Shown in pieces: positions 23,801 through 29,800 of a stretch of 64,000 bases of DNA. The DNA is taken from NCBI RefSeq assembly GCF_964213995.1, contig NC_135822.1:21328001-21392000 (forward strand), written 5' to 3'. The number at the start of each line of letters is the position of its first letter. The stretch's first letter is position 1. Under the pieces are notes generated by a model. The model ran no database searches, was not told the DNA's origin, and saw only the letters and a program-made list of their open reading frames with translations. The stretch is from Mustelus asterias. Lineage: Eukaryota. The position numbers were made by a program, and so were the translations under genes.

Positions 23801-26800
23801 AACAGTGGTTATATGTGTCTCAGGCACTTTGTGACTTTTCTATATCCTATTCACTGTGATCTAATCTACCCTGATCTGTTAGTCTTTTAATCCCAAATTA
23901 TTCTAAACTCACTCTGACAATTTACTCTCACTTATCAATTAACAAAGGATGGGCATTAAATACTGACCAAAAACAGATTTGAAAAATACTGTTTGCTATG
24001 ATGATTAATTGTCACTGAAGGATAAGAATGATTGGTCCTGCTATCTTGGTCACATATGTGATCATCAATCCCAGAGGTTGAAAATTGGGATTTTTGAAAA
24101 AACCCTTAAACAAGGGTGGTGTGGTAATTCCTTCCTTTGTTGCGAGACTCAGCAGATGTGGGGTTTGAGTGGAATCCAAATTTGACCTGATGTTTATATT
24201 AAAGCTGTTGGTTGCAGGCTGGAAAAGGTTGCTGTTATTAGCAAAGAGCGAGGGCCAGTTTTGCTGAATTGTTGATCAGCCTTGGGTGTTGCATTGACTG
24301 ATCAGTAATTTACTTCTCAGTTGCTCATTCTCAAATACCTGTGACACTTCATGGCCTGTCATAATTTTACTGTTGATTTTAGCACCCAATCCCATTTCCC
24401 TGTACAGTGGCCAGAGAACTGGAGTTGCGAGGACTGAGATGAGGATACATTTCTTCACTCAGGGTAGTGAATCTTTGGAATTCTGTAGCCCAGAGGGCTG
24501 TGAATGCGCAATAATTGAACTTGTGCAAAATAGAAATGGATAGATTTCTGGATGCAAATGACATGAAATGACATGGGTTAGGTTGATTGGCCATGTTCAA
24601 ATTGCCCCTTAGTGTCCTGGGATGCGTAGATTAGAGGGATTAGCGGGTAAAATATGTAGGGATATGGGGGTAGGGCCTGGGTGGGATTGTGGTCGGTGCA
24701 GACTCGATGGGCCAAATGGCCTCTTTCTGTACTGTAGGGTTTCTATGAAGGGAAATGGGGATAGCGCAGGAAAATGGCTTTGAGAAAGTAGATGATTAGC
24801 CATGATCTGGTTGAATGGTGGAGCAGGATCAAGGGTCTGAATGGCTTACTCCTTCTCCTGAGTTCCATTGGAGCCAGTACTGTACTCAGTTAAAAGCTTC
24901 AATTACATCCCATGTTTAGAAGAGCTAAACCTGGAATGAAATTGCTGGAGGTTTCTTCCCATTCAGGAGTCCTATCCCTACCATATAAATTTCCATATAA
25001 TTGTATTGTTAACAATGGGATGGGAATGTTATACCTGCTGTTAAGGTTTATGCTTAGTGTTCAACTGTTAAATGCTGCTTTCTTTGTTCATGCTGCCGTG
25101 GAACCAGCTGCTCAAGGTAACACCACTTAATCCACAAATGTGTTGTTCCATTGTCTTTGAGAAGGCGCAAACATGTTTTCAGCATGTCCATTAAGGTGGA
25201 AAATTGCCTTTTGGTAATGTGCGAGTTGTTTGAGAAATGAATTGGGCTCCAGGCATCTCTGTTGTTAATGTTCAAATTTTAAAATGTAATGCCTACCAGC
25301 TTTAATTGATGGTTGATTATAAAGCACCTTATTTTGTGTTAGATCTCTTAAGTTGAAACAGTGTGGGTGGGTGGCAGGGGGATGTGGGAAGAGGATTACA
25401 CAGTCCCCACAGATTGGATCTAGGTGACCAAGCTAATGATGCTTGAATGCTACTGAGATGTGACCCACAATGATGTAAAACCACTATCCTTGGGCACACA
25501 CGTGGAGTGATGCATATATGATGAGGTTCCCTGTTTGTAGACGGTTTTTGACCATTTATTTATTCTGACAGATGGCCCGATGGGAATGTTCATGAAGCGA
25601 CTGTCCTCTCAGCTGATCCTGCTGCAAGCCTGGAGCTACCATCTACTGAAAATGTTCTATGATGCACGTAAACCTCGCAGCCACTCAAAGAATGAAATAA
25701 CAATAGAGAACCTGGCCCGAGATGAGTTTAATCTGCAGAAGATGATGGTGATAGTGACAGCATCTGGAAAGGTAACGGTCCCTGAGCCATAGTCTTGCGT
25801 TGTCTTGTCTCTCCTTTCGTGCCCAATGTGCTGCATCTTGCTGATCTGTTTCCACATGAACTGGTGGCTGCTTAAAGCATTGAATATCAGCTTGTTAACT
25901 GCCTTATCAGAATAGCACCTGATCCTACCCTGAGTCACTCCCATGAGCTTTCTAGCATGAATCACTAGATTATAATGAAGGGATGCTTTTGACCACTCCT
26001 GCTTGGTGCTAGATTATTATTTTTTAAATTGTACACTGAAGAATGGTATTTTGAATTCCAATATGAGCCCTATACCCTGACGTAGAATTGTTTTGAATTG
26101 AATTGCGGTATATCCAAGAAATGTTCTGGCTTCATTCAGCTGCTCGTGGATTCTTGACCTGGTTGTTTTGTGCTTGTTTCGCATTGACTAGTTTATGTAT
26201 TTGAATCTGCCAGACTTGAACAGGTAAACCTGACTGTTTGCCTCTTAGTATGGGACTATGGGGAAAGTTTGATGACCGGAAAATTTATTTCACTGCCCAC
26301 TTGCACTTGTATGCATCAAACCTGCACAATATGACCTTTTCTATTCTTCTTCTTCTTCCTCTACCATCCTTCTGCTAAGAGAATGTGTGACTTTATTCCT
26401 GCTGTCAGCAGTAGTACCATGTAGCACCGACAGGACTTTGAAAATATATACCTGGATGGTGAGCTTCTGCCAGCACCTCAGGTGTTTACCAGTTCTAACC
26501 TGTTTCGTGTTTCCGTTATTTGTGTATTCATTTCATTTGACAGGTATTGTGTAATGCTTCCAGAGGTGATACAGGATATCTTTTTGTTCCTCAGCTCTCT
26601 CATCTGATGGTTTTCAGTGCTGAATTTTTTTTTTACAGCTCTTTGGAATTGACAGTAGCTCTGGGACCATTTTGTGGAAGCAGTACTTTGAGAACGTGAA
26701 ACCAAGATCCTCCTTCAAACTGGCTGTGCAGCGGACAACAGCTCACTTCCCCCACCCACCACAGTGTACCCTGATAATCAAGGACAAGGTAAGAAGTCTA

Positions 26801-29800
26801 ACAAAACCAGGTTAAAGTCCAACAGGTTTATTTGGTAGCAAAAGCCACTAGCTTTCGGAACAGGCTGTTCCTTCGTCAGGTGGGTGGGAGTTCTCCAGTC
26901 CCATCAAGGACAAGGTCAGAATTACTATGCAAAGATTACCTACCAATCCGCTGGTGAGCTTTTACATCATATAGTCTTTAGCTTCAGGGGTTTCATGACT
27001 TGGGAGAAGATGGTGGCATATTGGTCAGGTCACTGGACCAGTGATCTGAAGGCCAGGGCTGTGTTCTGAGGACATGGGTTCAAATCCCACCATAGCAGCA
27101 GGTGGAATTTAAACCAAATGAATAAAATCTGGAATTGAATTAAAAACTGGGTGATTATGAAACTGTTATTGATTGTTGTAAAAGCCCATCTGGCTTTTGC
27201 TCACTAATATCCTTCAGGGCAAGAAATCGGGCATCTAGACCTGACCTGCCCTACATGTGACTCCAGCCCACAGCAATGTGGTTGACTCTTAATTGTTCTG
27301 TGAAATGGCCTAGCCAACCACTAGGTTCAAGGGCAATTAGGGATGGGCAACAAATGCTGGTAATGTCAGCGATGCCCACATCCTGTGAAAGAATACATTT
27401 TTAAAAATCTGACACTCTGCAGTATCTCTGTTCTGGTGCTGAGCATAATCACAATAATTATAGCCAAACATATACATGTGGAGGTTTAACGGAACATGCG
27501 AGAATATCCTTTCATGTTTATTATTATGTAATGCTACATGCTTGGGATTAATATTATGCCATAGTTTTCTTAATATTGCCCCAATATTGAAGTACATTGC
27601 CTGAAGTTTATCCTAAATGTATAATCATTTGGTCTTGAAGATGTATATGAATCTGTAGATTGGAGGTGATAGCTGGTGTTTCCAAAACTGATATCGTCAT
27701 TTGTAGTTTGCAGGTTCAGAAGGGTTGGAGGTGATTCGTAATGACAAAAAAACTTGCATCTATACAACAGAATTTGCAAACACAGGACATCTCAAAACAC
27801 ATCAGAACCAAAGAAGCAGCTTTTTAAGTGAAGTTCTAATTTAGAGAATTCTGCAGCAGATTTGTGCACAGCAAGGCTCCCTCAAAAAGCGAAGACATTA
27901 TAACCAGATAATTGGTTTGGTAATGTTGATTGAGGGATAAGTATTGGCCAGGACACCAGGAAGAACTCTCGTGCTCTTTTTTTTAAAATAGTGACATTTG
28001 ACAGAGGCCCCAGACTGTATCTTGATTTGCCATCCGAACCAAAAGATAGCCTCTCTACAAAAGATAGCCTCATTGCTCCCTTAGTACTGCCTTTGGATGG
28101 TGCATTGCTCTCTCAGTGCTGCCCCTCCTCTGATGAAGCGCTCACTTGGTAATGCTTCTCAATGGCACTGAGTTCCTGCAGTACTACCATAGAACCATAG
28201 AATCCATACAGTGCAGAAAGAGGCCATCCTGCCCATCGAGCCTACGTGAAAGAGCATCCCATCCAGGACCTCCTGTCCACCCTACCCCCCCAAAACCTTG
28301 CATGTTTATCATGGTTAATCCACTTACCCTACACACCTTTGGACCCTAAGGGACAATTTTAACATGGACAGTCCACCTCACCTGCACATCATTGGACTCT
28401 GGGAGGAAACCGGAGCACCCAGAGAAAACCCACGCAGACACTGGGAGAATGTGCAAACTCCTCACAGACAGTGACCCAAGGTCAGATTTGAACCTGGGTC
28501 CCTGGCACTGTGAGGCAGCAATGTCACTGTGCTGCCCATCAACAGAATCTGTTCAGGGACTGCAGGCTAACTGCATTTAGAATCAAGTCAGCAATTTGTG
28601 GAGTACAAAAGACCTGCTCACGGTTTAGTCCTTGGCAAAAACATCTGATGTTTGAGGGCTGAGTTCCATTCACTGTCTCTATGCCAGTATGCAACTGTGA
28701 GCAGGCACCAACTGGAAACACATTCAGTGTGCCTGAAAGTCAACATAACATTCGACAAAGCCACGTTGATGGAGCAGTGCCCACCAGTGCTGCTCTTCAC
28801 TTTCTGTGAAGGGTTCAATTTAAAAAAAAACAAAATACTATTTCTACCTTGTCACTAAGGTGAGATAAACTATCCTCTTTCTTCTCCCTCTTCACTCAGG
28901 AAACAAGACTGAGTTCTCTTCATGTTTTCAATCCGATCTTTGGAAAACGGAGTCACGTCAATCCACCCCTGCTAACCCGTCCTATTCTTCAGTCTTTGCT
29001 GCTTCCGATTATGGACCAAGATTATGCTAAAGTCCTGCTCCTGATTGACGATGAGCACAAGGTAATTCTGCATCATGTTTTGAGATTGCTGTGGATTCAC
29101 AGGGCCGTCAATTCCCCCATTATCAATAGTAATTAGAGTGATGAGGGCAATGAATCATAGTATGCTAAACCATGGGCTTGACTGACTTTATTGTACTACT
29201 TTTAGTGGCACTGTTCAGATCAATAGAATGCATTGTTAGTCCATCTCGATGCCACAACAGGTACTAGATTTGTACTAATTACACAAGTATTCACGGAGCT
29301 GGATTACCAGTCAAACCACCAAAACAAACTAGGTCTGTTTTGGATTTGTGTTTGAGATATTCTTGGGAGATATGTTTTGTCTCCTTTTCTCACCCCTGCT
29401 TTGGACTGACTCTTGTTGACATTGAGTTCCATTGTTATTCTTCATGTGTGTACCTCAACAGTGAGTGCTGGCATTCTGCTCCACTGTAGCGAGCTCACAG
29501 TGAACCTATTCTTGACCCCACTCAGTGTCACACATGCACTGCCACTAGTTAAGTCATTGGGAGCAGGAACTATAACTGATTATTTTCCTTCAGGTAAAGT
29601 GTAATATGAGCACCCTGACTGCCTCACCTCTTATGTCCTCCCTGCTAGCTCTAGATGCTGGTTATGTGCTGAATATCATCTCATTACAAAGTGGAAACAA
29701 AGAGTAACTTTAGTTTTGCTGTTTTATCTCATGGCAGGTGACAGTCTTTCCCTCCAGTAGAAACATCCTGCAGCAACTCCAGGATTCTGCACCTGTGATT

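Follow-up and report, generated by a model that had tools for sequence, protein, structure and literature searches.

What becomes of a gene when a retroelement inserts exactly at the 5' splice site of one of its constitutive exons? The question is raised by a stretch of 64,000 nucleotides (nt) from the shark Mustelus asterias (contig NC_135822.1, positions 21,328,001 to 21,392,000; hereafter the window, whose numbering is used unless another locus is named), in which the gene EMC1 carries a fragment of a Penelope-like element (PLE) at the junction of a coding exon and the following intron. Our analysis makes it probable that a recent PLE insertion exchanged the splice donor of this exon, with the end of the element likely acting as the working donor. 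The parts concerned are as follows (a slash within letters marks a cut or an exon end).

26639..26788, plus strand: EMC1 coding exon of 150 nt, matching human EMC1 residues 546-594 (PDB 6ww7_A, E 1.4e-26) and covered by spliced contigs
28900..29061, plus strand: next EMC1 coding exon, matching human residues 596-648; joint 26786->28898 in the X3 and X17 contigs (GT..AG at cut +2)
26777..26788, plus strand: left copy, at the exon end, of a target-site duplication of most likely 12 nt; family duplications are mostly 11-14 nt up to the cut
26789..26896, minus strand (sense): apparent 3' end of a Neptune-type PLE, an inverted tail-less arm, 108/108 identical to the copy in L003 and assigned from the open reading frame (ORF) features of the family
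26895..26902, plus strand: 8-nt junction filler CCAGTCCC, defined by comparison with other copies
26903..26914, plus strand: right copy of the duplication, its junction without cover in runs X1, X3 and X8

The 14 letters ATCAAGGACAAGGT are present twice, at 26777-26790 and 26903-26916, around 114 nt derived from a Neptune-type PLE that is very abundant, and this insert together with the right duplication adds 126 nt to the 5' end of the intron. An earlier description of the window from its letters (the sequence-only reading) had pointed out both copies and the PLE piece between them. That arrangement stands; the duplication is most likely 12 nt long and not 14, because the family target motif described below, used as an anchor, would place the cut before the GT at 26789, which is itself assignable to either target or element. 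The insert consists of a short arm of 106-108 nt plus the filler, in which the fold-back and tail of a second arm have probably left a trace, as CTCC follows the arm in L003, L005, L006 and L007 and CCAGTCC is present in the tail. EMC1 is single-copy, with one genome match for exon 26639-26788, and this exon is the homolog of human exon 15; the number 14 given to it earlier fits the shark count if one small early exon, missed by tblastn, is assumed. In the passages of PMC5902391 on human EMC1, c.1212 is the end of exon 11. Shark EMC1 apparently lacks a counterpart of one short human exon (window 18515-21388), the ray protein running 354->355 across both exons, and exon numbers are therefore offset by one.

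The insert is a genuine insertion, absent from organisms B and C. In organism B a DNA contig (run X4) passes from 26776 straight to 26903, leaving out 126 nt, with no difference listed at the old donor (26915-26922), so that the ancestral state is AAG/GTCAGA. In organism C, record 1 of run X10 breaks off at 26776 and differences resume at 26953, at equal depth. The sequence-only reading had foreseen an empty site with GTCAGA in relatives, and the clean joint in B with the matching break in C bears this out; its converse, relatives already carrying GTAAGA, is not the case, the donor of organism B being GTCAGA. The filled allele is seen in organism A, where an X1 contig is unbroken over 26600-26818, spanning 26790 and reaching 30 nt into the element with 0 differences at a depth of 20.6. 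The empty-site joint was not found in the X1, X3 or X8 contigs, of which that of X8 ends at 26771 with a depth of 2.9 and is uninformative; the uncovered 26904-27060 in these three runs is likewise no evidence.

The family appears to be an endonuclease-positive (EN+) PLE of the Neptune/Nematis type, which supports the PLE identity given to the insert by the sequence-only reading. Longer copies have an open frame with the reverse transcriptase (RT) motif YIDD, a C-x4-CxxC linker and a terminus of the GIY-YIG type, which is the layout given for Neptune/Nematis PLEs; the evidence comes from partial frames, such as one of 390 amino acids in L032 that lies upstream of the same 3' end and contains YTRYIDD and VVYL..WYIGET, and not from a full-length ORF. 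The linker PCHSNLCKTC occurs in L020, L032, L033 and L114, and the Pfam GIY-YIG match (E 0.017) is under the cut-off. Contig C1 gave 94 sampled arms, taken in genome order: 50 had a 39-nt tail and 44 were short. The usual insertion consists of duplication, short inverted arm, tailed arm and duplication. The EMC1 insert begins GTAAGAAGTCT where other copies read CACAGTAAGAAGTCT, a sequence with 6 matches at no more than 2 mismatches against 0.22 expected. Within the window it matches five other places at 84-96% over about 100 nt, among them the copy at 6859-6962 (96% identity over 106 nt), and it has 1-3 differences over 106 nt from 15 of the sampled arms; its 108/108 identity to the copy in L003 indicates that it is young. 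Genome counts for the element end were 5,013 for an exact 32-mer and 131,150 for a slightly degenerate 29-mer.

Further insertions of related subfamilies lie in the window at 44077-44895, 56918-57665 and 6577-6972, two of them being inverted-arm pairs, and 44457-44576 still codes for the endonuclease end. Elsewhere, the same insertion recurs about every 53 kb on contig C200 (L020-L025, G000:C200), marking a large tandem repeat unit, and another identical insertion is repeated on C21, C61, C180, C274 and C277. A weak Rfam match to transfer-messenger RNA at window 26997-27091 (E 0.0036, far under the gathering score), inside a repeated element, is probably the tRNA-like head of a short interspersed element.

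Why the element should have hit an exon end so exactly becomes clear from its target. A duplication of at least 10 nt was present at 32 of the 49 unbiased short ends, and 31 were left after one duplicated locus was dropped. Within the junction ambiguity, NNCA followed the duplication at 32/32 sites, where chance would give 6.0 (2000 draws reached 16 at most), and NNCAG at 23/32; TG was found 16 or 17 nt to the left of CA at 28/31 sites, against a background of 0.158. The family thus cuts two letters before CA in a target of TG, 16-17 nt, CA.

26770..26772, plus strand: left half (CTG) of the spaced target, its TG lying 17 nt away from the old donor's CA; empty site TACCCTGATAATCAAGGACAAG/GTCAGAAT
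26915..26922, plus strand: old donor GTCAGAAT, which doubles as the target's right half (NNCAG), from the X4 contig and the family target rule
26789..26796, plus strand: new donor GTAAGAAG, the short (tail-less) end of the element in antisense, from copy comparison and without difference in the X1 contig

At EMC1 the empty site reads CTG-N17-CAG; its CAG lies within the old donor GTCAG, and the cut is at the exon boundary. Relative to GTAAGA the element starts at offset 0 here and in 6/31 sites; it starts inside (+1/+2) in 5 and before (-1 to -7) in 20, and at 3/31 sites the GT of the empty site was swapped in place for GTAAG. A hit on a GTCAG-type donor is therefore within the normal behaviour of the family, because the old donor fits the target and the beginning of the element lies at GTAAGA or close to it. 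The donor would be rebuilt in register by a minority of hits of this kind; in the others splicing would fail, and the insertion would disappear. It is probably the GIY-YIG endonuclease that sets the target preference, and the short end is probably fixed because second-strand priming takes place about 39 nt in from the end of the RNA. A junction formed through microhomology between GTCAGAA and GTAAGAA was considered and rejected: the NNCAG target accounts for their likeness, and in many copies the join shows no overlap. The target rule also explains hotspots in repeats, where six insertions (L213, L236, L252, L253, L317 and L319) share one site (..TATCAG/GTAGACA) of one repeat and many share a single site (..ACAGG(G/A)GAG/GTCCCAGA) of another. 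An assembly artefact, for which the lack of an organism A contig over the right junction might be cited, is scarcely credible given the left junction in X1, the clean empty site in relatives, and a duplication length, cut position and spaced target that all match the family rule.

In the new donor, AAG/GTAAGA, positions +3 to +6 are supplied by the element, and the sole difference from the old donor over the first six intron letters is +3. The new donor matches the U1-complementary consensus at 7 contiguous letters and the old donor at 4, with crude duplex energies of -9.5 and -5.4 kcal/mol, respectively. One contig of X3 (organism A, same study as X1; depth 217.9) and one of X17 (organism G) join 26788->28900, and the exon-exon junction sequence of the EMC1 protein is conserved in sharks, rays and chimaera in the homolog listing. 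In the filled allele AAG/GTAAGAAG is the only donor that yields this in-frame junction in one step. The element end thus likely serves as the working donor there, as the sequence-only reading had proposed: the junction that needs it in this allele is found, and its use is what we infer, because the empty allele gives the same junction. It could be imagined that the insert plus right duplication is first spliced as a small GT..AAG intron, in a recursive, introner-like manner, since 26789-26914 starts with GT and ends in AAG before GT and its removal restores the ancestral sequence and the old junction exactly (GT..AG at cut +12). This is very improbable; the stretch before AAG is purine-rich with no pyrimidine tract, no intermediate was seen in the contigs, and the first step would still need the element's donor.

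What, then, of the displaced donor? Beside it, the insert holds a stop codon and cryptic donor-like sites.

26813..26815, plus strand: in-frame TAA that a transcript spliced at the old donor would reach, 99 nt ahead of the junction
26880..26885, plus strand: cryptic donor-like CAG/GTGGGT from the antisense hammerhead core, judged by its letters alone
26811 and 26826, plus strand: two weaker cryptic donor-like sites, judged in the same way

Use of the old donor would keep reading through the insert into the TAA, and the premature stop predicted by the sequence-only reading is indeed there. The old donor is intact; it is not the sole alternative, as the three CAG/GT sites inside the insert (exon ends 26810, 26825 and 26879), all of which would shift the frame, stand beside it. 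The sequence-only reading had seen in the two donors a potential alternative 5' splice site coupled to nonsense-mediated decay (NMD), and such a switch might be regulated and tune the EMC1 level. The old donor functions in relatives, and since its use would bring a stop 99 nt ahead of the junction, in an exon from the middle of the gene, it meets the usual NMD rule, by which the stop lies more than 50-55 nt before an exon junction. Of the two junctions that such a switch would set against each other, 26788->28900 was found, the contigs showing this in-frame junction only, while no joint 26914->28900 was present in those of X3 and X17, 26904-27060 had no cover in X3 or X8, and use of the cryptic sites was not seen; these are weak negatives, since contigs drop rare forms. 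The read-through peptide occurs in 0/120 listed EMC1 homologs. Organisms B and C lack the insertion, and the two-donor arrangement is thus not conserved. We consider a regulated switch distinctly unlikely, and that part of the sequence-only reading has so far not been supported.

The same reading had placed a hammerhead ribozyme in the insert, antisense to EMC1, and this is supported by the orientation of the core on the minus strand and, structurally, by stem covariation across 24 copies.

26845..26883, minus strand: minimal type I hammerhead motif, with CUGACGA at 26879-26873, GAAAGCUA at 26856-26849 and palindromic AGCU replacing stem III

On the minus strand, 26883-26845 reads in the order stem I, CUGACGA, bulged A, stem II, GAAA, GCUA, stem I', which has the features of the minimal type I hammerheads of PLEs (a CUGANGA / GAAA / UH core, stems I and II, the bulge after A9 and the palindromic 15.2-16.2). 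With a search pattern that demanded the core letters and not the stems, pairing held in 94.9% of stem cells across the 24 copies compared with 22-48% in slid controls, and both-side changes were found in 12 cells against 3.8 when shuffled. The Rfam scan of the window gave no hammerhead match at E<=1, and single-strand folding of the motif was not significant (z -1.76), as expected because it has no stem III. Being antisense to EMC1, the motif is predicted not to cut the pre-mRNA. The antisense hammerhead core at window 26865-26885 and in other copies forms a pyrimidine tract followed by CAG/GT(G/A)GT, a combined acceptor/donor-like motif, and many copies have CAG/GTGAGT.

Has the same thing happened elsewhere in the genome? 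Element ends preceded by AG number 594, of which 244 distinct ones including EMC1 were examined (the first 100 in genome order, then subsets picked by their preceding letters). A flush duplication of at least 8 nt was present in 143/244, with GT next in 48 of those. The 243 other ends gave one further real exon and one candidate.

L199:428-502 (G000:C3 near 132,149,000): 75-nt coding exon of a CARD19-like gene, with an AAG/GTAAGAAG donor apparently supplied by the element
L267:1405-1765 (G000:C6 near 1,545,700): candidate third case, with a strong pyrimidine tract, a short open frame, a flush element end and the duplication CCTATGAAG followed by GTAGAC

In the CARD19-like gene a 240-nt arm belonging to an older subfamily comes after the exon end, and 259 nt downstream stands AGAGAAAAG+GTACCT. 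The exon is present in the proteins of four other shark genera, one isoform skipping it, and the NCBI model P0031, which is identical to the gene in this genome, places its joint at the donor built by the element. This would be a second donor swap of the same layout. The gene (L199:428-770, G000:C3:132148521+; L223:9260-9413; L224:4397-4545) is a two-CARD gene, and the exon lies in its linker. For L267 a PDB search gave no match, and the open frame is too short for a protein search. No host family was found by Pfam among 31 other candidates, an insensitive exon test that missed the EMC1 exon itself; the exon test as a whole is crude and misses untranslated exons. At least one real donor among 47 sites with duplication and GT is expected 14-21% of the time from the AGGT frequency of the fetched loci and an assumed 200,000-300,000 donors, and extrapolating 1/243 gives about 2 cases (0.06-13) for the other 593 ends. 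The recurrence (1/47) is thus compatible with chance, and enrichment of donor hits is not shown. A bolder view would make this a donor-regenerating family, whose endonuclease target overlaps weak 5' splice sites and whose short end is kept as a strong donor, making exon-end hits harmless, so that shark genomes would carry recurring genes dependent on a Penelope end, with a poison alternative donor recruitable for NMD control; we regard this as unlikely.

Several points weigh against a donor swap at EMC1. The junction 26788->28900 is identical from an empty or a filled allele, and S2, the sample of X3, may carry either; neither X3 nor any other listed run is recorded as RNA. The right junction is covered by no organism A contig, and X1, from which the filled state is read, may be the assembly's own sample. 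The duplex energies are crude, one cryptic site scoring -12.5 via shifted pairing. The target motif was derived from the same sites that were used for counting, a partly independent AG-selected set giving 16/22. In the CARD19-like gene, the right half-site is CT, not CA. A rival reading makes the insertion a rare or heterozygous, mildly harmful allele, with the spliced contigs coming from the empty allele and the element end not really a donor. Both alleles would give the same junction, the copy is young by the identities given above, and contigs may drop one side of a heterozygous site. We nevertheless find this quite unlikely, in view of the X1 contig that passes 26790 unbroken, the lack of an empty-site joint in X1, X3 and X8, a new donor nearer to the consensus than the old one, and the single-copy state of EMC1, loss of whose function is described as harmful in people in the relevant passages of PMC5902391.

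For the preferred reading, a recent swap of the EMC1 donor, we propose that a Neptune-type PLE cut exactly at the exon-intron boundary, duplicating the last 12 exon bases, and that its tail-less end GTAAGAAG was left flush with the exon, where it is now the likely donor. Insertions into donor-like targets would survive only with their end in register (5'-GTAAG flush with the exon), and those that remain would therefore have the look of self-repair. At the displaced donor and at the cryptic sites there would be at most minor leaks, whose products meet a stop and are cleared by NMD, and the antisense hammerhead would be a passenger. Such a case offers a dated and checkable vertebrate example of a retroelement that swaps the constitutive donor of a single-copy housekeeping gene with the mRNA unchanged, by a mechanism legible from the family's own habits, its target rule and its end sequence. 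The observed frequency demands no adaptation by the element. The case suggests a route for donor turnover and for the origin of duplicate donors, and provides a natural before/after pair (GTCAGA in relatives, GTAAGA plus a displaced donor in this species) suited to testing donor competition and NMD.

Neptune-clade EN+ PLEs have an RT, a CX2-5CxxC linker and, at the C-terminus, a GIY-YIG domain (PMC8557442, in part), and PLE insertions have an inverted 5'-truncated arm, a 30-40 nt tail on one end only and a short target duplication (passages of PMC8557442 and PMC3846280). The family described here appears alike in all these respects; the Neptune-clade passages of both papers give no spaced TG..CA target and no PLE end used as a host splice donor. 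As described in the relevant part of PMC4209133, minimal hammerheads of metazoan PLEs have an extra base between 9 and 10.1, the pair G10.1-C11.1, a palindromic 15.2-16.2 and no stem III; the motifs often lie on opposite strands 100-700 bp apart, the minimal form is dimer-dependent, and single motifs show no detectable cleavage. The EMC1 motif seems to share the core, bulge, pairs and palindrome, likewise without stem III, and differs in lying antisense in a host intron.

The literature covered, outside which lie most subscription papers and all supplements, holds no description of a transposable element (TE) end replacing a constitutive donor, nor of shark Neptune elements or a Neptune target preference. 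Antisense TE sequence supplies donor-like sites in introns, giving TE-derived alternative splice sites and exonisation. The EMC1 case is unlike exonisation in that the element's site takes over a constitutive donor at its original position, with no added exon. It resembles introners, in the passages of PMC11282704 and PMC12130899 that describe them, in that the element brings one splice site, the duplication matches, and the insertion is invisible in the mRNA; the word 'Penelope' is absent from the main text of both papers. It is unlike them in that an intron already present is lengthened by 126 nt at the 5' end, its donor being swapped; because no intron is created, the intron position being shared by relatives, it is not an introner. 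TE-supplied splice sites in general were already known, and what is new here is a probable donor swap by an element end that is explained by the target rule and the end sequence of its family.

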